DNA of 64,000 bases from Nitrosopumilus sp. (GCA_965205675.1 OZ242186.1:960001-1024000); one strand, 5' to 3'. Positions 4,690 through 28,024 are shown, numbered from the stretch's first letter. Notes: generated from the sequence alone by a model not told the origin. Program-made: numbers and translations.

Positions 4690-7600
4690 ATGATAAGAAG
4701 TCACCTTGTTAAGGCGTTATATCAGAATCTTTTAGGACCATTATACGGTCCTAAAGAAATTATTGAGGAACCTTTCTTAAAATATGAATTAGGTATTCTA
4801 AATTCATCTTATTCAATTGATGATGATATTGCTCAAAACCAATCATCTACAAATGCTGAAATAAATCCAAATGTTGCTGAAATTAAGCAAGAAATTCATG
4901 AATTAAATAATTCTGAAAATACTCAGGGCTCTGAAAATCTACGACAGGAAGTAGATACAGAATTAAACCTAAAATCTGGTGCGTTATCTCTTGGACTATC
5001 TTTTGTATTGGAAGGTGCTCACCCTAAATTTCAAATTTGTTTAACTTGGGCTAGATATGTTAAGACTGTAGAATTTGGTTCTGTTCCTAATTTATTTATG
5101 AGGAAACCCAATTTTTTTGTCACTGATTGGATTGACGCTAGCAAAAAATTTGATTCTGTAAAATTGAGTAATGATGTCAATGGAAGTATAGTTACACATT
5201 CTGGTGTTTTTCTTCATGTTATAACAAAAAAGATAGAACATTTTGATAAATGGACTGTTCAAATATTTTTGGAAAACAAATCTGAATATGATGTAACAAA
5301 AAGTCAATCCGAAGTTACTAGAATTTTTCAACCTCAAATTAGAGTAAAATCTGAAAACGAACTTTTAGATTTAGATTCTAGTCATAATCAACATACCACA
5401 TACAATGATGATTTACTTTACCATAATTTGAGAACTAAAGCAAGAGGTTACTTGTGTGCTGCAGTATGGAATGATGTTGATCCTGAAAAAAATTCTGACG
5501 GTGATATTGGAAAAATCTCTTGGCCTGATTCAGAAATTGTACCTGAAAAAATTAAATCATTTTTTACATGTCCTGATGTACGAACTGAATATCTTCCACT
5601 TTATTCTATTTTACAACCAGATCAATCTGATAAACCTATTTTCAATGCAAATACACTTTCACAAACATGGAAATCAACTGATATTAAATCCCAACTAAGT
5701 TCAATAGAAAAAAATTATACAAATTGGATTGATGATCGAAAAAAAACTCTTGACAATGAAGTACAAAATAAAATCATTGAACCCCAACTTAAAGAAAAAG
5801 GTGAGTCAAATCTTAGAGATTGTTATAGTTCTAGGGACCGAATCAAACATGGTATTGATTTTTTAATTGAAAACAAAAAGGCTCGGGCTGCATTTTGCTT
5901 TATGAATGCTGTCATGAATGATAAACGAGTAAATGAAACAAAAAATAACGCAAATCCTGATGGTGCAGATTTGGAATGGAGGGAATTTCAAATGGCATTT
6001 ATTTTACAAAGTCTTAAGGGCGTTAGTGGAGAATCTAAAGATGAACGTGATTTATCTGATGTATTGTGGTTTCCTACTGGTGGTGGAAAAACAGAAGCTT
6101 ATCTTGGAATCGTAATTTTCACTCTAGCATTTAGAAGATTATCTATTGATGAAAACCAAAGTAATGAAGGAGGGGTAAATGTAATTTCCAGATACACTCT
6201 GAGATTGTTAACTATTCAACAATTCCAACGTGCACTTGGAGCAATTGTTGCAGCAGACCTTAGACGAGTAAGGAATTGGCTTCCTTCTGAGGCAATTGAA
6301 GGAGAAGAAAAAATTTCTGATCCTGTTTTAATAAAAAAAAGAGATGATTGTTCCTTTTGGGGAAATCATAGATTTTCAATTGGAATGTGGATTGGAAGTG
6401 GTATAACTCCTAAAGATTTTGCAATAACTACTGGCCCTGAAGGTAAAAAATTTCTTAATTGTGAGGGTGCATTACGTCCACAATGGCATAAAGATAGAAG
6501 AAATTCTGATGAAGATAGTGGCCCTGATCCTGCGCAAGTCCAAAACTGTCCTGTCTGTAAAAATATACTATGTATCCCACGAGAACAAAAAGAATACGGT
6601 TCTCCTAAAAAACTCACTTGGATTATTTGTTCTCCTCATTCTTTAGAGATTCTTCAAAAAATTACTAAAGAAGATATTGAATCTCAAAATCAAATTGCTC
6701 TTAGAGAAAACCCTGAATTTGAATTACTTTCAAAATCTACTGATGGCTTTTCGTATTATCGTTTAACCATGGAGCTTTTACCAGTTCGAAAAAATCAAGT
6801 TCTTGATAGAACATTGATTGATAGTTGGTGGAATTCCCATGTGAAAGGTAGATTGGATCCTGATGACGACCGTGACCCTCTTGAATCAACCAGTCCTTCT
6901 ATGCCTGGATATTTTTTCCTTCATCATGGTCATCCACGACCTCATGACTTTGCAATTTTTTGTACCAACAAATCTTGTGAACTCAATAAAAAAATACAAT
7001 GGTTTGAAAAATTAGAAAATCAAGTTGACACTTTAGTTCCAAAACCTTTTCAAATTCCTGATTCTCCTCACCTTTCAATCTCTGTCCCAATTTCTGCATA
7101 TGTTTCAGATGAACAAGTTTATGCAAAATGTCCTAGTTTTCTAATTGCTACAGCAGACAAATTTGCAAATCTTCCTTTTGAACCTCGATGTGCATCTTTA
7201 TTTGGAAATGTCGATGTTCTTCATCGAAGTTTTGGATATGGTCGAAGAATTGCATTTACTGCTCCTCTTCAAAATAGAAGTGGAAATCAAAGAATTCAAG
7301 TTCCTCCAGAAAAACTTATTGATGTACGTGGATTTAATCCCCCTTCTTTGATACTACAAGATGAATTACATCTTATCGAAGGACCATTGGGAAGCATGGT
7401 TGGAATTTATGAAATGGCTGTAGATGTATTATCTAACAATGGATCTAGACCAAAATATATTGCTTCAAGTGCAACAATTAAGGAAGCAGAAACTCAAGTT
7501 GGAACAATTTTCAGACGAAAAATTTCTATTTTCCCTCCTCCTGGAATCGATTCTTTTGATAATTATTTTTCAAAAATTGAAGAAGATATTCCATGTACTG

Positions 7601-10600
7601 CAGAAAAATTTGGAAGACTTTACCTTGGAATCTCATCGACTAAATCAACTGTGTATCTTCCAATAAAGGCTCAATCCATTATAATGAGTGAAATTTTTAA
7701 AATTAGAAATAATCCTGATAATTATGATTTAAATGAAATTGAAAGAAATGATCTTCAGTCATCAATAGATCCTTATTGGACATTTGTTTCTTATTTTACA
7801 GATTTACAATTATTATCAAAATTCACTGACTATTACCCTGAAAATATTATAGAAAATGTATCTAATTGGAGTAATACCCGAGTATCTAATTCTTTAACTC
7901 GTTTACCTAACAAGCCTATTGATTCTGGTTTGAAATTATTTCCTTTAATTTCTGATAGAGAACTTGAAGTTTCAAGTATTTCTATTTTTTGTGCTAATAA
8001 AATTGGGAAAATAAAAATTGCATTATATCGAAGTGACAACCCTGTTGGAAAATTAATTTATTCTTCTGAATTTCAGGATTGTAGATTAAATGAAAATATT
8101 TTTGATTTAGCTGTTGGTGATTTTCCTAAAATCAATAAAGGTGAAAAAATTTGGGTTTCGGTGATTAGTACTGATCCAAAAACCATTTTTCAATTAGTTG
8201 AAATAACTGAAGATTCATTAGAAGACAAAACTTTTGAACCCACTACAGAAAACTTCCCTACTGATTTTAAGGAACTTTCCTCTATTGAAGAAAATTTTTC
8301 TATAAAATTCACTCTCAATTCATCATTTCGATTATTAACTGATGAAAAAAATATTCAACTTTCTAGTGAAACTAAACCTGAAGATCTTACAAAAAATCTA
8401 GAACAATTACAGTCAAAATTCTTAATTGATTCACTTCAAACCTCACCTGTTTTTGGAACTGGTATTGATGTTGATCGACTTGGTGTGATGCAAATTATGA
8501 ATCAACCAAAAACAAATTCGGGATATATCCAATCTTCTGGTCGTGTAGGTAGATCAAATCCCGGTCTTGTTATAAGCTGGCTTCGTGCAGGACGTGCAAG
8601 AGATCTTAATCATTATGAAAATTTCATAGGTTATCATAGAATGCTTCACAAGTTTGTAGAGCCTGTAACTGCTTCTCCTTTTTCTGATGAGGCAATGAGA
8701 TTGTGTTTGGGTCCTATACTGGTTGCAATTTTGATTAACGCACGTAATGTTTCAGGCGTTTCTGTTAGTAATAGGTGGGTATTGGATTCTGGGCCTGATA
8801 GGATGAGGGAACATCACAATGACCCTGATGTGGAATCTGTAAAAAATGCATTATCTGAAATTTCTAAATCAAACACTATTGCTGATTATAGAAAAATGCC
8901 TCCTGAAAGATTTGAACATCTTTTCAACGAACTCAAAGGACTATGGCACAAAATTGCAAAAGATTTGGCTGATGATAAAACTAGACCGTTTACTTATCAT
9001 GAGAGAAGACCTAACATTGTTCCTGAGAATAACGTTGTGCTTGGTACGCCCAATCATAAAGATCTTGGATTGGATTATGTGTATGATGATACCCCTAATT
9101 CTCTAAGACAAACTGAATCCAGTTCTGTTTTTTATGGTCCGAAAAATGATATTACTCAAATCAGACCATCTCAATTCACTACCCGTTATGGGCCAGGTAC
9201 ATTGATTTCTGGAAAAAAATCTACTTGGGTGATTCCTCCAATTCAAGAAATTGTTTCAGATCTGAAAGACACTGGAAATTTTGAAGCACCAAGTACCTCG
9301 GGGTATAAAAGATTATACAAATATGAAATTAATGATTCTAGAATGAAACGTCTTTTACATCGATTCAATTCTGATATTGATTGGCAAAAATTAAAACTTT
9401 TTTCATTACCTACAAATTCTTCATTAACTGTTAAAGAATTCCAACCTCTTTACCGTTGTAATCAATTTCCTAGGTGGGCGGTTTGTCATAATAAAGTTCA
9501 TCCTTCCCGAAGAATATTAGCTGAGATGACTCCTGCTCAAAAAGGAATTGTTATCAAATGTCCTGCATGTCAAGAACATTCTGATATTGATGATGAAAAA
9601 AGTACTCAATTTTTTAATGCTCGATATGTTTTAGCTTGTTGCAATGGTCATTTAGATGATGTAAATTGGCAATATGAAATTCACCGCTCTGGTGTAAAAT
9701 GTGGAGGAAATGTTTTCGAATGGGTTTCATCTGGAAGTAATGATGATGCAGAAATTGTTTGTTTAGGACATTGGGATTGTAATGACCCAAATAGATTCAT
9801 TAAAAGTACTTGTAAGTCTAGTGCCACATATTTAGAATTAAAAGGAAGATCTAAACTTGGTCAAATGGATTGTTCTGCAAAGTTTGCTGAAACAGGACTG
9901 ACTGATCCTGATGGATGTCCACGTCCAATTGATAATATGTCTCAAGCAAAGATGATCAGTAAAACCCAGATGAGTTTACGAATGCCTATTGTTGCAACAA
10001 CGATGGAAATTCAAAAACATAAAGGAATTTTATATGAAATGTATGAGCCCTTGGCCTCATCAATTGTTATGGGAATTTCAATGTTGGAAAAAATTAATCC
10101 AAATTGGACTAAAAATGATTTTCTTGAAACCGTTCTACGTAATAATAGAGGCAGTATTAGAGGAATAACTAATCAAATTTTAAGGCAGACAGAAAATGCG
10201 TCAGAAAATATGTTTAGAGAGGTCATAGAAGCTGTTAAAAAATTTGCAAAAACTTTGGACAACCGTTCTGAGTCTTTATCTGAATACGATTCATTAAATG
10301 AAGAATTAATCAGTCTTGAGAATCTGACCCTTGATAATGGAACTGGTGCCCAAATCAGTCCTGATGATCCTGAACCTGATATGCGTTTTCCAATTCAATT
10401 CGAAACTAGTATCGATTTAAATTTTGAAGCAATGCCTTTTGGTGACATTAAAGTAACTCAAGTACAAACTGGATATACTAGGGAAATATCTCCTCCAACA
10501 TTACGTGGTTCTCTTTCTCAAGATGATACCAATGATGGTGTAAGGATTGGTAAAGTTATTTCTTCAAACGAAAAATTTGTTGATGAAAATGATGGTAGGT

Positions 10601-11235
10601 GGTATCTTGGAAATCAATCCAGAGGTGAAGGAATTTTTATACATTTAGATCCAAAAGTCCACGAAGATTCTATGGATGTCTTTAATGGTAATACTTTTGA
10701 TGATCTTAAAATTTGGGAATCTATTCATCAGAAAATTTTGGAGAAAAATACACCTCTTCTTGAAAAATTAAAACAAGAAGAAAGCAATGAACAACAGATT
10801 GATGCATTAGAAAAAGAAAATATGCAAAGCAATCCTCTTTTTGTTTGGTGGCATTCCTTTGCTCATGAACTAATTAATCAATTATCCATTGATTCAGGAT
10901 TTATGGGTGTTTCACTTGGAGAGCGAATTTATTGTATTGAAAAACAAAATGGTACATTTGGTTCTGGAATTTTCATATATGTTTCAAGTCCAGGTGCAGA
11001 TGGAACTCTTGGCGGTCTCACAAGTTTAGTTAATTTGAAAGTACTTCAAGAAATTATTGAAAAAACTTTACAGAAAATTTCTACTTGTTCTAATGATCCT
11101 GTATGTTCTGAAAGGAAAATTAATCTTAAACGTAGAACTGGTGCTGCTTGTCATATTTGTTTGATGAATTCAGAAACATCTTGTGCCTACCAAAACAAGT
11201 TTCTAGATAGAAATTTGATTAGAGGGACTTTATGA
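4690..11235 (+). CDS. DISARM-like DrmA helicase-DrmB (DUF1998) fusion protein, 2181 aa
   Basis: DrmA motifs LWFPTGGGKTEAYLG, SRYTLRLLTIQQFQR, ATADKFA, QDELHLIEGPLGSMVG, ASSATI, GIDVDRLG, YIQSSGRVGR; DrmB motifs IRPSQFTTRYGPG, CCNGHLDD, HSFAHELI, SLGERIY, GTLGGL, CSNDPVC...AACHIC...SETSC...NKFLDR. Confidence 0.9.
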   Translation: MIRSHLVKALYQNLLGPLYGPKEIIEEPFLKYELGILNSSYSIDDDIAQNQSSTNAEINPNVAEIKQEIHELNNSENTQGSENLRQEVDTELNLKSGALSLGLSFVLEGAHPKFQICLTWARYVKTVEFGSVPNLFMRKPNFFVTDWIDASKKFDSVKLSNDVNGSIVTHSGVFLHVITKKIEHFDKWTVQIFLENKSEYDVTKSQSEVTRIFQPQIRVKSENELLDLDSSHNQHTTYNDDLLYHNLRTKARGYLCAAVWNDVDPEKNSDGDIGKISWPDSEIVPEKIKSFFTCPDVRTEYLPLYSILQPDQSDKPIFNANTLSQTWKSTDIKSQLSSIEKNYTNWIDDRKKTLDNEVQNKIIEPQLKEKGESNLRDCYSSRDRIKHGIDFLIENKKARAAFCFMNAVMNDKRVNETKNNANPDGADLEWREFQMAFILQSLKGVSGESKDERDLSDVLWFPTGGGKTEAYLGIVIFTLAFRRLSIDENQSNEGGVNVISRYTLRLLTIQQFQRALGAIVAADLRRVRNWLPSEAIEGEEKISDPVLIKKRDDCSFWGNHRFSIGMWIGSGITPKDFAITTGPEGKKFLNCEGALRPQWHKDRRNSDEDSGPDPAQVQNCPVCKNILCIPREQKEYGSPKKLTWIICSPHSLEILQKITKEDIESQNQIALRENPEFELLSKSTDGFSYYRLTMELLPVRKNQVLDRTLIDSWWNSHVKGRLDPDDDRDPLESTSPSMPGYFFLHHGHPRPHDFAIFCTNKSCELNKKIQWFEKLENQVDTLVPKPFQIPDSPHLSISVPISAYVSDEQVYAKCPSFLIATADKFANLPFEPRCASLFGNVDVLHRSFGYGRRIAFTAPLQNRSGNQRIQVPPEKLIDVRGFNPPSLILQDELHLIEGPLGSMVGIYEMAVDVLSNNGSRPKYIASSATIKEAETQVGTIFRRKISIFPPPGIDSFDNYFSKIEEDIPCTAEKFGRLYLGISSTKSTVYLPIKAQSIIMSEIFKIRNNPDNYDLNEIERNDLQSSIDPYWTFVSYFTDLQLLSKFTDYYPENIIENVSNWSNTRVSNSLTRLPNKPIDSGLKLFPLISDRELEVSSISIFCANKIGKIKIALYRSDNPVGKLIYSSEFQDCRLNENIFDLAVGDFPKINKGEKIWVSVISTDPKTIFQLVEITEDSLEDKTFEPTTENFPTDFKELSSIEENFSIKFTLNSSFRLLTDEKNIQLSSETKPEDLTKNLEQLQSKFLIDSLQTSPVFGTGIDVDRLGVMQIMNQPKTNSGYIQSSGRVGRSNPGLVISWLRAGRARDLNHYENFIGYHRMLHKFVEPVTASPFSDEAMRLCLGPILVAILINARNVSGVSVSNRWVLDSGPDRMREHHNDPDVESVKNALSEISKSNTIADYRKMPPERFEHLFNELKGLWHKIAKDLADDKTRPFTYHERRPNIVPENNVVLGTPNHKDLGLDYVYDDTPNSLRQTESSSVFYGPKNDITQIRPSQFTTRYGPGTLISGKKSTWVIPPIQEIVSDLKDTGNFEAPSTSGYKRLYKYEINDSRMKRLLHRFNSDIDWQKLKLFSLPTNSSLTVKEFQPLYRCNQFPRWAVCHNKVHPSRRILAEMTPAQKGIVIKCPACQEHSDIDDEKSTQFFNARYVLACCNGHLDDVNWQYEIHRSGVKCGGNVFEWVSSGSNDDAEIVCLGHWDCNDPNRFIKSTCKSSATYLELKGRSKLGQMDCSAKFAETGLTDPDGCPRPIDNMSQAKMISKTQMSLRMPIVATTMEIQKHKGILYEMYEPLASSIVMGISMLEKINPNWTKNDFLETVLRNNRGSIRGITNQILRQTENASENMFREVIEAVKKFAKTLDNRSESLSEYDSLNEELISLENLTLDNGTGAQISPDDPEPDMRFPIQFETSIDLNFEAMPFGDIKVTQVQTGYTREISPPTLRGSLSQDDTNDGVRIGKVISSNEKFVDENDGRWYLGNQSRGEGIFIHLDPKVHEDSMDVFNGNTFDDLKIWESIHQKILEKNTPLLEKLKQEESNEQQIDALEKENMQSNPLFVWWHSFAHELINQLSIDSGFMGVSLGERIYCIEKQNGTFGSGIFIYVSSPGADGTLGGLTSLVNLKVLQEIIEKTLQKISTCSNDPVCSERKINLKRRTGAACHICLMNSETSCAYQNKFLDRNLIRGTL

Positions 11236-19378: not shown

Positions 19379-20474
19379 TACCCCAGATCATAAGTCTTTT
19401 CAATTTACTGTTCTTGCAAAATACTGATACATATTCAAATTAAATTTGTGGGTTCTAAAATATTCCATAACTGTATGCCTCATTTCATGAATAGATTCAT
19501 AAAATTCTGATTCAACATTAACATGTTTGCACTGTCTCCAAATCTCTTCAATCATACTCAAATGCGGAGAACCTCTTGGAAGATATGCCAGTTCAACATC
19601 TTCGTTTTTACGCAGATATTCTTTTACATCATTAGCTTTGTGTTGTGACGCTCTATCGACGATAACAAATATTTTCCCGAATTTTTTACGAGCTGCCTCC
19701 AAATAATCCATAAATGCAATGGAGTTAAATTTTTCATACGATCTAAAAAAACTTTGATTATCATCAGTCATCATTCCATAAACCAAAAATCTTTGGTGCG
19801 ATCCTCTCCAACGTACAATCATTCGTTGGTGTACATCTGTCCAGTATTTTTTACCAAGACGTACATCGTCTACAAATACAGACTCGTCTTGGATGAATAC
19901 TATAAAACCTTTCTTTTTTGCCTTTTTTATGCGTGAAATGATGCGGTTTTTCCACTTGCGGCATGTATCCTTGGATGCTGCTCGCACATGTAGTTTTTGT
20001 GGAACCTTTGGTTTTAGATTCCATTTGTGCATCAAACGACGCACGTGAGTGATATGATATGTAATGCGTGTTCTGTAAAATATGAATTGTATCAGTTTTT
20101 TTGGAGTCATTCCATCTGAAATTCTCTTAAATGTACGCTCTATTTTTTGTAATTTTTTGTGTGCGATTAATGGCGGACGGCCAGAACGAGGGAGGTCCTC
20201 CAGACCCTCCAATCCATATTTTTCAAATGAATCAAGGCAGTTCCTTACAGAATTGTATGTACAAAATATTTGGCTTGCAGTTTCAGCAATTGTAGATTTG
20301 TTGATCTTAATTATACACATTGCATGCAGTCTTTCCTTTTTCTTACCGTACTTTTCTTTTTTGTAGGCCTGGAGTAACTCGTCATTTGTGATGTCCATGA
20401 AATTATTTCTAACTACTGATCAAAAAGTATTGCTATTTGTTTTGAAAAATTGCAAAGAATTATGCTCCGAGGTA
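19379..20474 (-). mobile_element. IS630-family element type C (copy 1)
   Basis: TIR TACCCCAGATCATAAG / ATTATGCTCCGAGGTA, TA on both sides; the two flanks belong to different genes (adjacent deletion inferred). Confidence 0.93.
19400..20398 (-). CDS. IS630 transposase, single ORF (332 aa)
   Basis: PRSGRPP, IQDESVF, VDRASQH, LPRGSPHLSMIE. Confidence 0.92.
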   Translation of the reverse strand: MDITNDELLQAYKKEKYGKKKERLHAMCIIKINKSTIAETASQIFCTYNSVRNCLDSFEKYGLEGLEDLPRSGRPPLIAHKKLQKIERTFKRISDGMTPKKLIQFIFYRTRITYHITHVRRLMHKWNLKPKVPQKLHVRAASKDTCRKWKNRIISRIKKAKKKGFIVFIQDESVFVDDVRLGKKYWTDVHQRMIVRWRGSHQRFLVYGMMTDDNQSFFRSYEKFNSIAFMDYLEAARKKFGKIFVIVDRASQHKANDVKEYLRKNEDVELAYLPRGSPHLSMIEEIWRQCKHVNVESEFYESIHEMRHTVMEYFRTHKFNLNMYQYFARTVN

Positions 20475-21547
20475 TATGTACTGATATCAGTTGCAAATAT
20501 AGAGTCCAAAGTATCAGTAGAGCAAACAATAGGTAGGATACTGCGATTATCAAAACAAAAAGAAAAGAAAAACCAAGAATTAAACTGCTCTTATGTGTAT
20601 ACATCATCACGAATCTTTGAGGAATCAGCTAAAGCATTAGAGAAAGGATTACTACAAAACGGATACTCTAAAAAAGATTTCAAGCAATTAACTGAAAAAA
20701 TACAAAGCAGGGAAATCTACAAGAGAGCAATTACTGATAAGGATATAAAAATTCCATGTATTGGAATAAATGATAAAAAACTACGAAGAATAAACTTTCA
20801 TGATGATTTTTTGGGTTCTGACTTTACATTAAGCAAACAAAAACCTCCTGAGAAATATCTTCTATACTTTGATGAAAATAAAACAAAGAAAGTTGACATA
20901 GAATATGGAGATAAGTTGAGTAGTTCTGTGCAAACATCACTTGATGTTACATATCAAAACAAGGATTTTGATGAAACTCGCCTGTTAAATTGGCTTGATA
21001 AAAAAATAAAACGCATAGAATATTCTCAAACAGACAAAAGAGAATATTTAGCAAAAATCATTAATCATGCGACAAAAAAAGAAAATATCTCACTATCTGA
21101 ATTATCAATTAATTGCTACACTTTACGTAACATCATAAACAGACAGATTGACAAACTAGAGCAGACAAAAGCAGAAAAAACATTCCTACATCTTGAAGAA
21201 TCAAATAAACTGATAATGGATAAAATACAATATTCCCCAGAACAAACACTTGAGATTAGCAATGTTTCTGAGGAACCATTTAAACTGCATCTCTTTGAGC
21301 GGGCAGGAATAATGAATAGAGAAGAATTAAATCTTGCCTTGAAAATTGATGGACTAAAAAACATAAAGTGGTGGTATAGGAATATGGATAAAAATGATTT
21401 CTACATACAAGGATGGCAAAAATTCAGATTCAATCCTGATTTTATAATAAAGACTAAATCTGGTAAATATGTCATTACAGAGTACAAAGGGGAAAATTTA
21501 CTTAGCAATGATGATACAAAGTACAAGGAAAAACTAGGTAAAAAGTG

Positions 21548-21625
21548 TACACTGTTCAATCTTAGTGTCATTTCTCGATTTTCACCCGAGTGTTCAATCA
21601 GGGTGACGGGTGTTAAGTTAGGGTG
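21548..21625 (+). repeat. Left 78-bp TIR with three internal ~16-bp subrepeats
   Basis: Exact reverse complement of 25883-25960; subrepeats CTGTTCAATCTTAGTG, GTGTTCAATCAGGGTG, GTGTTAAGTTAGGGTG. Confidence 0.95.
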
Positions 21626-21628
21626 CTA

Positions 21629-21758
21629 TAGCGAGAAGCATATGTTCATGAACTATTTTCATGGTATTTCAGATCGTTTATTCGTATTTACCTAGGTAAA
21701 ATCATCTAATCTCTAGTTTTTTGATGATTTTTAGTTCACGAACTTTATCTTTTCGCTA
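21629..21758. mobile_element. 130-bp MITE (IS630-related), copy 1
   Basis: Imperfect TIR TAGCGAGAAG...GTTCATGAACTA / TAGTTCACGAAC...CTTTTCGCTA, TA duplication; homologous inverted copy at 58748-58876. Confidence 0.85.
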
Positions 21759-22024
21759 TAGTCATTAACTGTAAATTCAAACAGTCCTTTTTTACCCGTG
21801 ATTATTTTAAGTTCATCATCTTCTGTAAATGAATGCTTTTCATATAACTGGGTCAACATAATGCAATTTTTGTTATTTACTCTCATATTGTAAATTTTCC
21901 CCATGAATTTTACCTTAAAAATTTCATCTTTTGGTGGAAATTCTTCTCTAATTATTTTTGGTAATCCTACATACTTGTATTTAGCTTCACTTGCAGACAA
22001 GCTCTTTACAAAATTAACAACCAT
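21731..22024 (-). CDS. Small putative B3/EcoRII-N-like DNA-binding protein (stop codon hit by MITE)
   Basis: Start coupled to the REase stop (TAATG); FVKSLSASEAKYKYVGLP resembles the B3 pseudobarrel KxLtxSD motif; MITE removal restores FTVND*. Confidence 0.5.
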   Translation of the reverse strand: MVVNFVKSLSASEAKYKYVGLPKIIREEFPPKDEIFKVKFMGKIYNMRVNNKNCIMLTQLYEKHSFTEDDELKIITGKKGLFEFTVNDYSEKIKFVN

Positions 22025-22737
22025 TACCCCATCACCTTTTCTCTGTTTGAGAAACATAAATCAAGATTGTCTGGAAATACTCTAAACCCAGTTCCATGAT
22101 CATGAGGTCTACCATCTGGATATTGTCCAATTCTTATGTCAACTAGAATTTTACCTTCTTTGAGTAATTTTATAAAATTATCAAAATCAAATCCGTTCAT
22201 CAGCCATGCCTCATTGTAATGAAATTCTTCATTTTTGCCCCTACCTTTAGAATCAGCTTTGACATACAAAAGGTTCTGTGGATATTTGCGATTAAATTGA
22301 GTTTCAAGTTCTTGTTTTTCCCAATATGGGGTTTCCATGTCGCCATAATCACAATGATCAATTTCTATTCTGGAATCATTGATAGTTAGAATAAATCCAT
22401 CATTTCCGTAAAGAGTATTTCTTGAAACTGCATCAAAGGTTGTATGTAATTTCTTTCTACCATTATCTGCTTTACGACCAAACCGTTCAAGCAGTTTGAC
22501 ATTTATTTTTTCAGGCATTGGTGCTTTTGTGAATAGTGTAAGCATACTTGGCGAACCTTTTCTTGCTGATTTTAATTCTGTAAAATGTCCGTTAGGTCCT
22601 GGAATATTATTTTCCTCAATGCCCAACAAATCCTCTAATGTTTTGCCAATACCTGTGTTTCCAGATCTATGGGTTGTTACAAATCCTGATTCACTGACTT
22701 TTTTTAGATCTACAAGAAGCTCATCATATCTTTTCAC
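22024..22737 (-). CDS. MvaI/BcnI-family type II restriction endonuclease
   Basis: HRSGNTGIGKTLEDLLGIEENN, ELKSAR, LTLFTKAP, DHGTGFR; 237 aa. Confidence 0.92.
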   Translation of the reverse strand: MKRYDELLVDLKKVSESGFVTTHRSGNTGIGKTLEDLLGIEENNIPGPNGHFTELKSARKGSPSMLTLFTKAPMPEKINVKLLERFGRKADNGRKKLHTTFDAVSRNTLYGNDGFILTINDSRIEIDHCDYGDMETPYWEKQELETQFNRKYPQNLLYVKADSKGRGKNEEFHYNEAWLMNGFDFDNFIKLLKEGKILVDIRIGQYPDGRPHDHGTGFRVFPDNLDLCFSNREKVMG

Positions 22738-22745
22738 AAATCAAC

Positions 22746-24065
22746 TCAATATTTCATAATAATAACACTTTCTCGGGTCATGGTTTTGCCTGTCTCTTTT
22801 GTGATGTTCTCAGGTGCATTCTTTGAGGGCATTGATTTGTTTGGTATGTTTCTCTGAATTATCTTATCCACCTTGAACCCATATTTCATCCCTAATTCAA
22901 TGGTGATTAAGTCAGTTGGTATGACTACACGCCTTACTGTCCTGTTTGCCACAACAAAACAGCAATAACTTTTCTTAGGAACTAGATTCTGAGATATTTC
23001 ATCTAGACACTTGTCTAAATCATAAAAGAATGAATATACTGCCTCTGTTCTGCATGGTTTCTTATTTTTTGTCATTGCAATGTCATTTTTTCTAACTTTA
23101 TCTAGTGTCGTGTTTAGTATTCCAGAACCCAAATCTCCACCTATTCTGTATTGACCACCCAAGCCAACAGAATCAACAGTTAGTGCTTTTTCTTCTTGTA
23201 ATTCTAACCAAAGGCTAGAATGCTTTGAGAATTGACCATAAGCTACAGTGGTTCCATGATCACCATAAGGCGGTGAGGTTACTACAAGATGAACTTTTTT
23301 GTCTTGTAGTATGTTGTTGTTAATTTTTTTAAAATTACCTGTAATGTCTCTTGAATCTCCCAACAATATGTGAGCTTTACCTTTAGGCATTGCATCAACC
23401 ATCTCAGTCATTTTGATTATGTTGTTTTCTGCAATCTGTTTGAACATATCCATTGGTTGTGGGTTAAATTCTATCTTGTCTGAATCTGAAATTCTATGAA
23501 TTTTCCAAGCACCGTTACGCTGATAGCTTGATTTCCTAACCGTCAAAGAGAAACATATTTTGAAAAAATCCCTTACGTCTTCATCACGAATCTTAAAGAC
23601 ATTGTGTTTTAGAGTAGTGAGTATTTTTATTGTATCTGGTTTGTACCAATTTTCAACATCTAGTTTGTTTGGAAGACATTCTAAATGATATTCTCGGTTA
23701 AGATAATCTCTAGCTGAATTTGAAAGTATTCTTGTCAGTGTTGGATTCAAGTCTTTGTGTATTGGAGTTGTTTTTACCTTTGAAAGTAATGTGGCAAAGG
23801 GGTTTATGTCAATTCCAATAGTTTGGTTTCCGTGCATCATTGCTTCAAGCAATACGCCACCTGAACCCATAAACGGGTCAAGAACAACATCTGTTTTATC
23901 TTTGGAATATTTTTCAATTACTTGTTTGGCAATTTCTGGATGCATCCTTGCGGGGTACAAATGCAAGGCATGAGTATATTTTTTGGTGCTTACATCTGCA
24001 AACGTCCATTCCATTTTTTGCAATTGTGATTTGTACAGAAATTCAGTATTTGTAATTTGTGCCAT
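22746..24065 (-). CDS. N4-cytosine DNA methyltransferase, alpha class (M.MvaI-like)
   Basis: THALHLYPARMHP, VLDPFMGSG (motif I) N-terminal to VTSPPY (motif IV). Confidence 0.9.
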   Translation of the reverse strand: MAQITNTEFLYKSQLQKMEWTFADVSTKKYTHALHLYPARMHPEIAKQVIEKYSKDKTDVVLDPFMGSGGVLLEAMMHGNQTIGIDINPFATLLSKVKTTPIHKDLNPTLTRILSNSARDYLNREYHLECLPNKLDVENWYKPDTIKILTTLKHNVFKIRDEDVRDFFKICFSLTVRKSSYQRNGAWKIHRISDSDKIEFNPQPMDMFKQIAENNIIKMTEMVDAMPKGKAHILLGDSRDITGNFKKINNNILQDKKVHLVVTSPPYGDHGTTVAYGQFSKHSSLWLELQEEKALTVDSVGLGGQYRIGGDLGSGILNTTLDKVRKNDIAMTKNKKPCRTEAVYSFFYDLDKCLDEISQNLVPKKSYCCFVVANRTVRRVVIPTDLITIELGMKYGFKVDKIIQRNIPNKSMPSKNAPENITKETGKTMTRESVIIMKY

Positions 24066-24072
24066 CAGTCGA

Positions 24073-24246
24073 TCACTTTTTTATCGGCTTGACATTGATT
24101 ATAAGATTACTTTTCTCAGCTTTAATCTCCCATTCCAACTGATCCTTTTCTTTTAGATCAAAATGGGTTATGATGCTTTGAGGTATTGTTGTTCTCAAGC
24201 TCATAGAAGTAGTGGTAGCTTTGTTAATCGATGTCTTTTCTCCCAT
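24073..24246 (-). CDS. AbrB/MazE-like DNA-binding protein
   Basis: SLRTTIPQSIITHFDLKEKDQLEW swapped-hairpin pattern; first gene of the R-M operon. Confidence 0.8.
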   Translation of the reverse strand: MGEKTSINKATTTSMSLRTTIPQSIITHFDLKEKDQLEWEIKAEKSNLIINVKPIKK

Positions 24247-24331
24247 AGGTAACAAGATAAGGCATTGTCTATTATAGTTACCTATTACCTATAACGTTAC
24301 CTTTATATCAATGGGTAACAGTATAGGTAAC
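24245..24331. promoter_or_regulatory. Divergent promoter with repeated GTTACCT/AGGTAAC operator-like boxes
   Basis: ATAGGTAAC 24245-24253, GTTACCTAT 24277-24285, GTTACCT 24296-24302, GGGTAAC 24313-24319, ATAGGTAAC 24323-24331 around TATA-like TTTATAT 24302-24308. Confidence 0.65.
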
Positions 24332-25666
24332 ATGAATAGAAAACAAAAAGCAAATCAAATATTCTCAAAAGCAAATAAGATTAGAAAAATTTCAAAGAAT
24401 CATTACGCTGTAGATTCTCAAAACTCAGACAAATCATACAATGTTAGAAAATTACCAAAATCGGATGTATGGACTTGTGAGTGCAAGGATTTTCATTTCA
24501 GATTACGAAAACTAGATGATAAACATTGTAAGCACATTAAATCATGTATCCTATTACAAGATAGTATAAACACAGAAAACAAAATAGAGCAAGTATCACA
24601 ACCCAAAGTTTGTCCTAAATGTCAATCATCATGTATTGTAAAAAATGGATTTAGAAAGCTAAAGAATGGAGGACAGAGACAAAAGCACAGGTGCAACCAA
24701 TGCAAGTACAGATTCATTTTAGGTGAAAATGGATTTTCCAAAGTTTCATCTGATCCTAAAATAATCTCTGAATCATTGAATCTGGTTATGAGTGGAATGT
24801 CATATCGTAACATTGCACGACACATTGAGACAGTACACCAAATCAAGATTAGTCATGTATCTGTGAATAACTGGATTAGTAAATACACACAACTAATCAA
24901 AGATTATGTTGATACTCTAAACCCTGAGTTGTCTGATGTGTGGAGCTTGGATGAAATGTATCTCAATGTCAAAAATACAAAAAAGACTGGAAAGGGATTT
25001 CATGATTGGTTATGGAGTATCATTGATCCTAAAACTAGATTTCTTATTGCTACAGAAGTATCAAAGAAAAGGGAAATTTCTGATGCAAGAAAGATTATTT
25101 CAAGTGGCAAGAAGATAATATCTAAAAATCCAAATTATGTATTAACTGACTGTCTAAATTCATATCAAGAAGCAATAAGAAAAGAGTTTGAAAATAAGAC
25201 TGCACATATCAAGACAAAGTCCCTCAAAGAAGGATTTGTGAACAGACCTATAGAACGGTATCATAATGAAATTAGAGAAAGACTCAAAGCTAGACGTGGA
25301 TTAGGCAATGATGAATCTGCACAGATGTTTTCAGAGTTGTTAAAGATAAATCATAACTTTGTCAAGCCACATCAAGGGTTAGATGGACAAACACCAGCTC
25401 AAGCTGCAAATATTGATCTAAATCTAGGTGATAACAAATATCTAGATTTGATAAAACTGTCTGGAACTAAAGTGAACTTTGTAAACAATTTAGGAAAGAG
25501 AATTAAAAAAGTTACAATAGTTAATGAGGGTGATTCCATTAAAGTTACTCCTACAGGATGGATTGATAAAAAAATATGGAGGGAGATAAACGATATTTTG
25601 AAACTTCATAAATTTAGTTGGTTATCAAATGGAAAAGATAGCTGTTGGCTGAAGATAATTTCCTGA
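24332..25666 (+). CDS. DDE transposase (IS6/IS240-like core) with N-terminal SWIM finger, zinc ribbon, HTH and extra C-terminal domain
   Basis: WTCECKDF...HCKH (SWIM); CPKC...CNQC; WSLDE, LTD, IERYHNEIRER, HNFVKPH; alternative start 24311. Confidence 0.88.
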   Translation: MNRKQKANQIFSKANKIRKISKNHYAVDSQNSDKSYNVRKLPKSDVWTCECKDFHFRLRKLDDKHCKHIKSCILLQDSINTENKIEQVSQPKVCPKCQSSCIVKNGFRKLKNGGQRQKHRCNQCKYRFILGENGFSKVSSDPKIISESLNLVMSGMSYRNIARHIETVHQIKISHVSVNNWISKYTQLIKDYVDTLNPELSDVWSLDEMYLNVKNTKKTGKGFHDWLWSIIDPKTRFLIATEVSKKREISDARKIISSGKKIISKNPNYVLTDCLNSYQEAIRKEFENKTAHIKTKSLKEGFVNRPIERYHNEIRERLKARRGLGNDESAQMFSELLKINHNFVKPHQGLDGQTPAQAANIDLNLGDNKYLDLIKLSGTKVNFVNNLGKRIKKVTIVNEGDSIKVTPTGWIDKKIWREINDILKLHKFSWLSNGKDSCWLKIIS

Positions 25667-25840
25667 TTTTCTCATTTCTTGCACTTTGTTAATTGCGTTT
25701 AGTGTATGATTTGTTATGACCTCAATGATTTCATTTTGAGAAACATCATAATCCATTTCATCATCTACAAACATGAATAATATTTCATCTAATTTTTCTT
25801 CATATTGGTTTTTAGTTTCTGTCTTCCTATTTTTTGACAT
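25625..25840 (-). CDS. Small hypothetical passenger protein of the transposon
   Basis: 71-aa ORF inside the right TIR, overlapping the transposase 3' end. Confidence 0.5.
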   Translation of the reverse strand: MSKNRKTETKNQYEEKLDEILFMFVDDEMDYDVSQNEIIEVITNHTLNAINKVQEMRKSGNYLQPTAIFSI

Positions 25841-25882
25841 ACTCTTGATGTATCTCAGTATCTAATATGTTGTAACTACGAT

Positions 25883-25960
25883 CACCCTAACTTAACACCC
25901 GTCACCCTGATTGAACACTCGGGTGAAAATCGAGAAATGACACTAAGATTGAACAGTGTA
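25883..25960 (-). repeat. Right 78-bp TIR
   Basis: Exact reverse complement of 21548-21625. Confidence 0.95.
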
Positions 25961-26102
25961 AAAAAGTGGGCAGAATTGGCAGGAGGTAATTATTTCTTTT
26001 ATCTCGTTAACAAAAACAGTGTCGAACAATTTATGACAGATATTGGAAAATTATGATTTGTAAATAGTTTAGTGCATTAATATCGTAATTGTTCTAATCC
26101 AT

Positions 26103-26189
26103 CACACCAATTTAACACTCATCACCCTAATTGAACACTCAGTTGAAAATCGTGAAATTGATAAAATGATACTAAGATTGAACAGTGGA
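26103..26189 (-). repeat. Diverged right TIR of an older related transposon
   Basis: CACACCAATTTAACACTCATCACCCTAATTGAACACTC...ACTAAGATTGAACAGTGGA is colinear with 25883-25960, with substitutions and a short insertion. Confidence 0.85.
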
Positions 26190-26204
26190 CTATTTTACAT
26201 AAAT

Positions 26205-26702
26205 TCATTGTATCAATTCAGGATATAATGAAATTGCACCTTTTGCAGTGATTATTCCCATCTCTGAGAGATAGTATTTTCTCCCTTTTCTAATTACATG
26301 TTCTGCTGATACCAATTCATCTAAAATTGCATTGGAATTCATATGTATTGCAGATGATGATGTAATTGCATGATTTTGTAATAGATACACAAGAACTTCT
26401 TCATTTCTATCAGGTGTAGGATAGTATGTTGTACGCATTAACATTTTTTGTACATGTATTGGCATTGATGTTATTCCATTTTTTGATTTCATCTGAATAT
26501 GAGTTGCCTGCTCCAAATGTGTTATGTTAATCTTTTTTGATTCTAATTGTTTTTGGCATGCTTCAATCAAAGCAAGTGCTTTTTGTACTGTTCTAAAATT
26601 TAATTCTGTTTTTTCACTTAATTTGTTTAATGTGTATGGCTTTCCATTTGCAATAGTTTTCATTATTTGTAGAGTTGCACTGGTAAGATCTGTTCTAGAC
26701 AT
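26205..26702 (-). CDS. Putative winged-helix DNA-binding protein
   Basis: YTLNKLSEKTELNFRTVQKAL HTH; C-term YYLSEMG wing. Confidence 0.65.
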   Translation of the reverse strand: MSRTDLTSATLQIMKTIANGKPYTLNKLSEKTELNFRTVQKALALIEACQKQLESKKINITHLEQATHIQMKSKNGITSMPIHVQKMLMRTTYYPTPDRNEEVLVYLLQNHAITSSSAIHMNSNAILDELVSAEHVIRKGRKYYLSEMGIITAKGAISLYPELIQ

Positions 26703-27058: not shown

Positions 27059-28024
27059 GATTACAATTCAATATTTTATAAATTTAGATTTTGATAATAC
27101 AAATTTGATTCTTTAGATATTTCCTCACTGGTGCTGAGATTTTTATTTTGAATTTTTTCCAACACATCAACTCTTTTTTGAAAGTTTTCTCTGATGTTGC
27201 TAATACCTGACACACTGCTTACATCATTTAATTTTGTGCTTTTCTCTAATAATTCGTATGTATCAAGCTTCACACATAAATCAATACCATTACACAAAAA
27301 GATCTAAGATCAGCTAAATCATTCTACAATACATGTCAGAGTGTGGTCATGAGAAAATCATTTTACAATTACAAGAGGAGATACGACAACTCAAAGCAAT
27401 CATAGAGAAATTAGTAGAATCAAACAAAGATTTGCAAAAAAGATTATCATACTATGAAAATCCACACTCACCACCATCAAAAAATTCACTTGAATGGAGA
27501 AAACAGAAACAAGATGCAAAGAAAAACAGAGATTCTGATTCTGGCAAATCAAAACGTGGTGGCATACCAGGTCACAAGGGCACAACACAGAAATTCACCC
27601 CAACCAGTACCATACATCACAAATGTTTAGAATGTCCCAAATGTGGAAGTGAAGATATCCTTCAAATCAAGACTGCCAAAAGAATAATGGTTGAAATCCC
27701 TCCACCAACTCAATACATTGCAACTGAGCATGTCTTGTATCAATACAATTGTAAGAACAGCTCTGATAGTTTCAAGACAGATGGAAATCTTCCACCATGT
27801 GGATGCTTTGATGCTTCTGCAATACGTGAGGCAGTCTCATTATTCTCAAAGAGAATGCCATACGATACCATTAGAGTAACTCTTCAAGAAAGATATGGAT
27901 TGAAAATTAGTTGCACTACAGTACAATCTATTCTTCGCACTGGCAGTATTATGTTAGAACCATTGGAGTGGACTCCTGTTTTTAGTACCACTTTTTGCAT
28001 AATCTTACATACAGTCTGATTCAT

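Follow-up and report, generated by a model that had tools for sequence, protein, structure and literature searches.

A probably mobile, IS6-related unit transposon with restriction-modification cargo in Nitrosopumilus

The stretch of DNA analysed here (the window) comprises 64,000 nucleotides of one strand of Nitrosopumilus sp. (GCA_965205675.1 OZ242186.1:960001-1024000) and holds, at positions 21548-25960, a 4413-bp element that we call E1. It is bounded by two 78-bp terminal inverted repeats, the left at 21548-21625 (plus strand) and the right, identical to it, at 25883-25960 (minus strand); a repeat finder gives the arms as 78 nt and 100% complementary. The sequence AAAAAGTG flanks the element on both sides, at 21540-21547 and 25961-25968, as an 8-bp target-site duplication, and because its copies directly adjoin both ends the length of E1 is 4413 bp. 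Inside lie a transposase gene on the plus strand (24332-25666, 444 residues; the 451-residue open reading frame, ORF, opens at 24311) and, divergent from it on the minus strand, a gene for a small AbrB/MazE-like DNA-binding protein (24073-24246, 57 residues from the second Met; ORF to 24255), followed on the same strand by genes for an N6/N4 DNA methyltransferase (22746-24065, 439 residues) and an MvaI/BcnI-family type II restriction endonuclease (22024-22737, 237 residues). We consider it very probable that E1 is a recently inserted, still mobile unit transposon belonging to an IS6-related family of ammonia-oxidising archaea, with a two-gene core and a bay for restriction-modification (R-M) cargo.

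Each end of E1 contains three direct boxes, CTGTTCAAT, GTGTTCAAT and GTGTTAAGT, at positions 5, 43 and 63 (21552-21560, 21590-21598 and 21610-21618 on the left). Within the window the 27-nt tip is found at three places, the two ends of E1 and a solo relative at 26163-26189, and it is in none of 100 shuffles. Its core, CTGTTCAA, agrees with the motif cTGTt..caaa that passages of a review of the IS6 family assign to the ends of that family (PMC7986276); the ends of E1 begin with TA, not GG, and this core is all that they share with IS6 ends. An earlier reading of the sequence alone (the sequence-only reading) had proposed 78-bp perfect inverted repeats with three subrepeats and an 8-bp duplication, and the arms, box positions and flanks bear it out.

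Contigs from three runs (X1-X3), which contain most of the stretch, were compared with positions 21000-26500 of the window. A 1279-bp contig of run X1 joins position 21539 to 25961, skipping 4421 bp (4413 + 8), and the 8 letters fit either side. A contig of run X2, from the same sample as X1, crosses the occupied left junction (21000-21577), and both runs contain a 4221-bp contig of the E1 interior. Since the 8-bp repeat is far shorter than the assembler's word, the joined contig should reflect real empty-site molecules, and empty and occupied forms of the site coexist. The empty form carries a single copy of AAAAAGTG, which is the look of an ancestral uninserted allele, so the insertion appears to be young and not fixed, in agreement with the recent insertion first suggested by the perfect ends. 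The passengers of E1 are thus present or absent as a block together with the 8-bp duplication, as in a unit transposon or an insertion sequence with passenger genes (tIS). Likewise, an orthologous empty site exists for a relative named L054, whose transposase is 84% identical and whose duplication is CTAGATTT: in the window's own genome its flanks adjoin around a single CTAGATTT at C1:802300-802414. A joint between opposite strands at 21547/25960 in run X3 was considered as an inversion and rejected as assembler behaviour at a 78-bp inverted repeat.

As judged from the predicted ORFs, the cargo of E1 is an intact type II R-M operon of the MvaI/BcnI type, the kind of system named at first sight. 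The endonuclease matches Pfam PF15515 (9.3e-48) over profile positions 3-227 of 227, the methyltransferase matches PF01555 (2e-14), and the two genes are adjacent and co-oriented. A 93% identical copy of the methyltransferase lies beside a truncated transposase in another genome, G014. Avoidance of CCWGG was considered as a trace of long exposure to an MvaI-like enzyme and discarded, as its observed/expected ratio of 0.77 is not below those of GATC (0.64) and GAATTC (0.75); the ratio for CCSGG is 0.97.

At E<=1e-3 the database contains 268 relatives of the E1 transposase; those with names are from Nitrosopumilus, Nitrosotalea and Nitrososphaera. Of 61 relatives sampled as whole genomes, the window's own genome counted, 19 contain a match at E<=1e-10. 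None of the 89 pattern matches in viral contigs was a relative. Many paralogues of about 375-400 residues (30-40% identity) stop before the C-terminal domain described below. Inverted pairs flank the transposase in 14 of the 25 genome loci with a usable transposase (29-96 bp, BLAST-aligned) and in 14 of 35 metagenome loci, 13 of them of 27-103 bp and one (L092) of 20 bp. Long inverted ends with cargo between them are therefore a regular feature around homologous transposases, as the sequence-only reading supposed, and the homologues do not stand without it. After merging of duplicates, 22 distinct elements of 2.8-8 kb remain, in all of which the cargo lies left of a transposase gene placed close to the right end. 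Perfect 8-bp duplications, called by eye from printed flanks, accompany eight of them (E1, L038, L045/46, L054, L056, L100, L101 and L102).

A DNA methyltransferase or R-M cargo is present in 18 of the 22 elements, in support of the proposed spread of defence genes; the census covers elements with pairable ends, and the cargo of L053, L054, L092 and L100 is assigned by similarity to tested relatives rather than by a Pfam run of their own. E1 contributes its MvaI-type II system. Type III Res and Mod genes occupy E2 (the same element as L045/L046), L053 (= L085), L102 and L092. L038 (= L082) pairs a HaeIII-family endonuclease with a Dam-class methylase, a system of which L054 holds a decayed copy; L039 (= L050) has a fragmented N6_Mtase gene and an S subunit, L093 and L101 a type I/IIG-like fusion with an S subunit, and L103 an 838-residue type IIG-like fusion. 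A PLD-type endonuclease with an Eco57I-type methylase is found in L083 (= L084), and an EcoRI-like methylase with a GmrSD_N-HNH protein in L056 and L100. L048 combines an MT-A70 methylase, an SNF2 helicase, an Mrr-type nuclease and two ParB_N-like proteins, L049 and L115 join an N6_N4 methylase to a partner of no recognised type, and L107 carries two methylases. Judging by these comparisons, the elements would constitute a new family of IS6-related transposons specialised in the carriage of R-M systems.

The ends of the family follow the pattern of E1, with three direct boxes per end at about positions 5, 34/43 and 55/63. Within an element the box sequence shifts in step: TGTTCA/TGTTAA (TGTTMA) in E1, TGGTCA in all three boxes of L048, and GGTCA/GGTAA in L049. 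Such in-step change is to be expected if each set of boxes is recognised by its cognate transposase. The multi-site ends proposed earlier are accordingly seen as boxes that are conserved and covary across elements, and their binding by the transposase stays a prediction.

The window's own genome holds three further relatives. E2 (C1:1827040-1832921) is 5.9 kb long with a type III R-M system; this copy lacks 19 bp, the left copy of the duplication included, and E2 may be embedded in a short repeat that moves along with it. E3 is a remnant with a methylase and a 362-residue partner. S0 (C1:923391-926562, 3172 bp) belongs to a short clade of relatives, whose ends begin with GG and are 49-63 bp long; it has 49-bp perfect ends starting GG, the duplication TGGTCTTC, a cargo of an N6_N4 methylase and a 229-residue partner, and a transposase frame shortened at the N-terminus. 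On a Nitrosopumilus contig (L040:7970-8077) the ends of three different family members stand side by side, in the order E2-like right end, 8 bp, a solo E1-like left end of about 98 bp and the L040 element's own left end; this looks like a clustering of insertions at ends already in place and recalls by analogy the preference of IS26 for existing copies. On the right-hand side of the transposase, L100, L038 and L049 have a second bay of cargo, smaller than the first. That of L100 (10176-11306) encodes a TIR-domain protein (CAP12/Pycsar-effector type, 1e-17), and those of L038 (11352-11720) and L049 (11346-11711) encode GIY-YIG nuclease-domain proteins. A pair of small proteins of about 147 and 110 residues, homologous by eye, is shared between a long-clade element (L089:8912-9696) and a short-clade one (L032:2974-3737), and could be a two-gene cargo module for defence or of the toxin-antitoxin kind.

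The small gene next to the transposase deserves separate treatment, since it can be assigned either to the transposon or to its cargo. Its product (60-residue ORF) matches Pfam PF04014 at 5.6e-5 and 23.5 bits, just under the cut-off of 24.7. The 85-bp divergent control region between the two genes (24247-24331) contains six ATAGGTAAC-like sites, three per strand, which are six of the 13 matches in the 64-kb window and include all three exact ones; a TATA-like TTTATATC lies at 24303-24310, about 25 bp ahead of the transposase start. We take the ATAGGTAAC sites to be putative operators. The gene heads the R-M operon, as had been noticed, and might thus be a C-protein-like controller of that operon and no function of the transposon. 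Small regulators often head R-M operons. The gene shares the orientation of the methyltransferase gene, with 8 bp between its end and that gene, and in genome G014 the two travel together at 98% and 93% identity.

A survey of the equivalent slot in other elements favours the transposon. We took 42 distinct transposase starts and collected divergent ORFs of <=100 residues lying 40-200 bp upstream. There were 39 such ORFs, and 32 of them, 52-183 bp upstream, fall into BLASTP clusters: nine with a CxxC..CPKC zinc ribbon, seven AbrB-like (E1's own among them), six with an 'IPKPI' motif, 6+2 that are ribbon-helix-helix-like (RHH-like) and two long zinc ribbons. The slot is occupied irrespective of cargo, also in the minimal, cargo-free elements L024 and L025 of 1.6-1.7 kb, and transposases 80-85% identical are paired with unrelated slot proteins, AbrB-like in E1, a zinc ribbon in E2 and RHH-like in L039. 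Because the slot is filled whatever the cargo, the AbrB-like gene appears to be the regulator of the transposon core, and the sequence-only reading of it, correct as to position and divergence, is better replaced in this respect. A role as cargo is a doubtful alternative that we nonetheless keep in view; the two roles are compatible, as a repressor at the divergent promoter could control both genes and one protein might serve both.

These features can be assembled into a scheme for the life of E1. Its core would consist of two divergent genes, the transposase and a small DNA-binding protein, AbrB-like in E1, which would bind the six ATAGGTAAC sites, repress the divergent promoters and so control the transposase and the downstream genes, with the R-M operon presumably read through from the promoter of the small gene. 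Several transposase molecules would bind the three boxes of each 78-bp end and pair the ends, and insertion would proceed by an 8-bp staggered cut. The cargo bay is the space between the small gene and the left end, used by a type II system in E1 and by type I/IIG, II, III and IV-like systems in relatives. The R-M system would gain mobility from the transposon, and the transposon may gain stability by post-segregational killing and host benefit, if the R-M system is active and addictive.

By analogy with IS6/IS26, movement would most likely be copy-in (replicative) via a cointegrate resolved by host recombination. Many copies without a duplication and the hybrid or abutting copies L047 and L040 are signs that fit this route. 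Cut-and-paste movement would equally explain the simple insertions with clean 8-bp duplications, and the transposase is only distantly related to that of IS26, under the IS6 cut-off; passages of Harmer and Hall (PMC6807381) also argue that long and archaeal 'IS6' elements may not behave like IS26. Against it, all tested IS6 members make cointegrates according to passages of two reviews (PMC7986276, PMC6807381), and 14 of the 22 elements lack duplications. Hybrid and abutting copies (L047, L040) are expected from replicative intramolecular events or from recombination between copies, and the empty allele has exactly one copy of the duplication, as in an ancestral site, while excision usually leaves a footprint. 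Cut-and-paste is thus unlikely, and we prefer the copy-in route.

The likely start of the transposase is the second Met, at 24332, where most homologues begin, and residues are numbered from there. Alignment with 27 homologues (57-89% identity to the query) shows invariant C49, C51, C66 and H68 (CxC..CxH), an invariant zinc ribbon (C94, C97, C121 and C124) and invariant D207, D273 and E308, giving a DD(35)E triad with R315 seven residues past the E. A C-terminal block of about 65 residues is well conserved, with W416, N420, D421, W430 and W439 invariant, and marks the clade that bears most of the R-M cargo. The architecture of zinc ribbon, helix-turn-helix (HTH), DDE domain and extra C-terminal domain described earlier therefore holds across the alignment. 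A language-model search with the first 90 residues gave, as nearest named Atlas clusters, ones in which 11-44% of the members have PF04434, the SWIM domain (score 0.88), a lead only. The structure model of the transposase (pLDDT, the predicted local distance difference test, 66) matched in a whole-model fold search only generic RNase-H-fold transposases and integrases, the best being ISCth4 (E 1e-8, TM about 0.3), with TnsB just one among many, and was set aside as a guide to affinity; a profile of the 27 sequences found no match at E<=1 among solved structures. Folded alone (pLDDT 67), the C-terminal domain reached a best Z of 5.5 against 48,161 chains, for common alpha/beta arrangements, and had no usable match in the Atlas.

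For family affinity, Pfam DDE_Tnp_IS240 matches at 1e-13 and 52.1 bits (cut-off 27). The nearest annotated relatives in a plasmid collection are clostridial ISCpe7 elements, 26% identical over residues 89-364, which cover the zinc ribbon, HTH and DDE only. The lineage would thus be IS6-related and not wholly apart, its core aligning with the long clostridial IS6 clade. The distinct archaeal class proposed from sequence is upheld as a family with its own architecture and is corrected in its lineage. Descent from IS1 or IS1595, with the IS6 likeness reduced to a shared RNase-H fold, would draw on the NCBIfam IS1 model, second after IS6 with 72 bits over residues 101-326, on a weak IS1/IS1595 zinc-domain match over the zinc ribbon (19.9 bits) and on the source annotation of one homologue as 'IS1/IS6 family transposase'. 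IS1595 elements also make 8-bp duplications and have passenger genes. This descent is nevertheless very unlikely: IS6 scores highest in the Pfam and NCBIfam libraries alike, the nearest annotated relatives are IS6-like, the ends bear the IS6-type CTGTT..CAA core, short-clade relatives start with GG like IS6, and the IS1595 DDE domain of Pfam is unmatched.

That E1 might be a one-off accident, an R-M operon captured in an ordinary insertion sequence and no longer mobile, is suggested by its single copy in the genome, a nested miniature inverted-repeat transposable element (MITE) and a host gene already broken by another insertion sequence, and is made extremely improbable by the empty-site allele in the same sample, the two perfect ends and intact main ORFs, the fact that 18 of 22 related elements repeat this architecture with other R-M systems, and the four such elements in this genome alone (E1, E2, the remnant E3 and the short-clade S0).

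Several observations do weigh against E1 as a mobile member of an IS6-related, R-M-carrying family. The empty-site evidence consists of assembled contigs, maybe from the genome's own source sample, and not of raw reads, and a search of 121 genomes of the genus for an orthologous empty site of E1 came up negative. NCBIfam IS6 (NF033587) is the best family model and scores 108.8 bits, below its cut-off of 125. The SWIM profile PF04434 has no match in residues 1-100 even at E<=10; of the SWIM domain first proposed, the CxCx(n)CxH signature stands, invariant in the 27 homologues, and the profile match is absent. Fold assignments in the regulator slot are weak, every Pfam score lying under its cut-off. 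No inverted pair flanks the transposase in 11 of the 25 genome loci or in 21 of the 35 metagenome loci; most of these lie on short contigs and some have 10-kb flanks. A duplication is missing from 14 of the 22 elements. The boundaries of L092 rest solely on a 20-bp match. Four elements are without recognisable R-M cargo, namely L040, L089, L119 and L047, the last of which has a surface protein and another transposase and looks chimeric. Finally, the copies known as E2 and L045/L046, from two Nitrosopumilus genomes, are 99.93% identical, and since 20-33 bp of flank on either side are common to both, they form one insertion lineage and are not independent.

Comparison with described systems places E1 beyond each of them. 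IS6 elements in ISfinder reach 1.7 kb in passages of one review (PMC7986276), so the earlier statement that classical members stay under about 1 kb did not stand; the same review and another (PMC6807381), as far as their passages go, describe zinc-finger N-terminal extensions in the long clostridial clades, give ends of 15-20 bp and list no thaumarchaeal member. E1 and seven further elements have the 8-bp duplication of the family, while E1 lies outside the cut-off of the curated model, the short ends starting GG and the single-gene size of 0.7-1.76 kb, having 4413 bp with five to six ORFs against the one gene of IS6. In passages of these reviews the ISCpe7 group (clade h of Varani et al. 2021, clade VII of Harmer and Hall 2019) resembles E1 in its zinc-finger/HTH/DDE core and lengthened N-terminus and differs in having 1.2-1.3 kb, one gene and short ends, clade i/VIII reaching 1.7 kb with an extra N-terminal domain (PMC7986276, PMC6807381). 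E1 adds to this group the CxC..CxH domain, the C-terminal domain, 78-bp three-box ends, a second core gene, 2.5 kb of cargo and an archaeal host. With IS26 and IS6 proper it shares, from what passages of the first review say of them, the 8-bp duplication, the CTGTT..CAA end core and a DD(35)E with a basic residue at +7 (PMC7986276). IS26-type elements, however, are of about 0.8 kb, with 14-20-bp ends from GG and one transposase of 213-254 residues, and have cargo only between two copies, whereas E1 begins with TA, measures 4.4 kb and keeps its cargo inside a single copy. Like a tIS in that review, E1 has one transposase gene and passengers within one pair of inverted ends; the only IS6 tIS named in its passages is ISDsp3, a single copy with a single hypothetical passenger (PMC7986276), and the E1 family differs in its multi-gene R-M operons.

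The mobile R-M units of Furuta, Abe and Kobayashi (2010) resemble E1 in their long inverted repeats (65 bp in Xanthomonas oryzae and 26 bp in Neisseria, in the passages giving examples), 8-bp duplication and empty site in a related genome; those passages concern bacterial units for which no transposase gene is described, and report no archaeal case passing the screen (PMC2853133). The E1 family, in contrast, is archaeal and has its transposase on board. Elements of the Tn3 family have a TnpA of about 1000 residues, 38-bp ends, a 5-bp duplication and a resolvase with its res site. That family was ruled out, with an IS6-like transposase of 444 residues, an 8-bp duplication and no recombinase among the E1 ORFs. 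Tn7-like and Mu-like elements have a TnsB/MuA-type transposase and an AAA+ partner. A Pfam scan of the ORFs found no Tn7/Mu-type transposase or AAA+ partner among the E1 genes; E1 lacks TnsB/TnsC/TnsD or MuB-type partners, has an 8-bp and not a 5-bp duplication and an IS6-like transposase, and its likeness to Tn7 and Mu, in several direct repeats per end of the transposase-binding type and in defence-rich cargo, is architectural and not by descent. That Tn7-like cargo is rich in defence systems is stated in passages of PMC8649781.

The insertion of E1 interrupts a plus-strand host gene for the C-terminal half of a DExH-helicase-like protein, at 20500 (approximate) to 21547 and continued at 25961-26049. 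The host frame ends at the left of E1 in ...KYKEKLGKK and resumes at the second duplication copy as KKWAELAGGNYFFYLV...*, reading KKWAELAGGNYFFYLVNKNSVEQFMTDIGKL-stop on the right. The sole homologue found in 121 genomes of the genus, of 770 residues and 38% identity, has visible Walker-A and DExH motifs and a C-terminus of ...YKQKMLDILSTLAGENY...; since this matches the host frame across E1, E1 cleanly splits one codon series, and the precise interruption claimed at the outset is confirmed. The first 31-39 or so residues of the host ORF recur at 14 other sites in the genome and belong to a neighbouring IS630-like element, so the host gene is broken twice. That element encodes a transposase of 332 residues (19400-20500), overlaps with its end the start of the helicase-like gene, and has its end sequence at >= 14 further genome sites. 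To the right of E1, 142 bp beyond it, a solo end in right-end orientation (26103-26189, minus strand) shows 78-84% identity to the E1 ends over aligned arms; a search for its partner found none, and together with the left end of E1 it would bound an alternative unit of 4642 bp. A 228-residue ORF at 27333-28019, with a coiled-coil N-terminus, CxxC pairs and further short ORFs adjoining, looks like another broken transposase, and upstream of E1 an ORF of 2181 residues runs from 4690 to 11235.

The nested MITE-like repeat, overlooked in the first reading of E1, adjoins the inner edge of the left end (21626-21761, plus strand). Its 134-bp core reads TATAGCGAG...CGCTATA, or TATAGCGAGAAGC...TCTTTTCGCTATA, and it has its own inverted arms of about 30 nt. 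BLAST matches it 32 times in the genome; 14 of these matches, with 77-97% identity, cover the full length, for example the copy at C1:1063149-1063285. TA is common to both ends, which suggests a TA duplication. At several sites only the last 30 bp or so of the repeat are present, joined to a longer common sequence that may be the parent insertion sequence; the IS630-like neighbour was rejected as parent, its ends not being shared. In runs X1-X3 the summed depth of the repeat exceeds the depth of the flanks by a factor of hundreds to thousands. The R-M operon ends in an ORF of 108 residues (21731-22057, minus strand), whose last 10 or so codons lie inside the repeat; it has no Pfam or NCBIfam match, and a frameshifted homologue (56%) occupies the equivalent place in L049. 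In the right-hand bay an ORF of 71 residues (25625-25840, minus strand) is of doubtful status and may not be a gene, with no family match in Pfam or NCBIfam and tblastn returning only itself.

A search of the full-text literature, with ISfinder, TnCentral and supplementary insertion sequence tables outside its scope, found no published description of the E1 family. Passages of a 2019 survey of thaumarchaeal mobile elements treat IS-like transposons as elements of one or two genes and report passenger-carrying DNA transposons as undetected in archaea, and the word IS6 does not occur in its main text as available (PMC6563490). A 2026 survey of archaeal insertion sequences notes a Nitrosopumilus genome with the highest content of its phylum, and its passages do not describe the E1 family (PMC13343696). 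The per-genome tables of these two studies may count E1-type transposases under another family name.

One wider reading, which we find evenly balanced, is that these elements form an undescribed superfamily of autonomous, cargo-carrying DDE transposons in ammonia-oxidising archaea and are the main vehicles of R-M systems there. It would unite a swappable small DNA-binding regulator and a SWIM-like/zinc-ribbon/HTH/DDE transposase, with or without the C-terminal domain, with triple-box ends of 50-100 bp, an 8-bp duplication and a bay almost always filled by R-M or related defence genes, and archaea would then have their first clear family of unit transposons with passengers, in which transposon and R-M system stabilise each other. 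Compact ends and a single transposase could also serve as a genetic tool in archaea that are hard to manipulate.

The E1 family would fill the archaeal gap in passenger-carrying DNA transposons apparent from passages of the 2019 survey (PMC6563490). It offers a concrete, testable R-M system with an on-board transposase, where the idea of selfish mobile R-M units, going by passages of its source, rested largely on units lacking one (PMC2853133). The IS6 lineage would be extended from tiny single-gene elements that move cargo between two copies to self-contained transposons of several genes, equipped with multi-site ends and a slot for a regulator, and the family would show a route for the spread of R-M systems within a microbial group that is among the most abundant on Earth.

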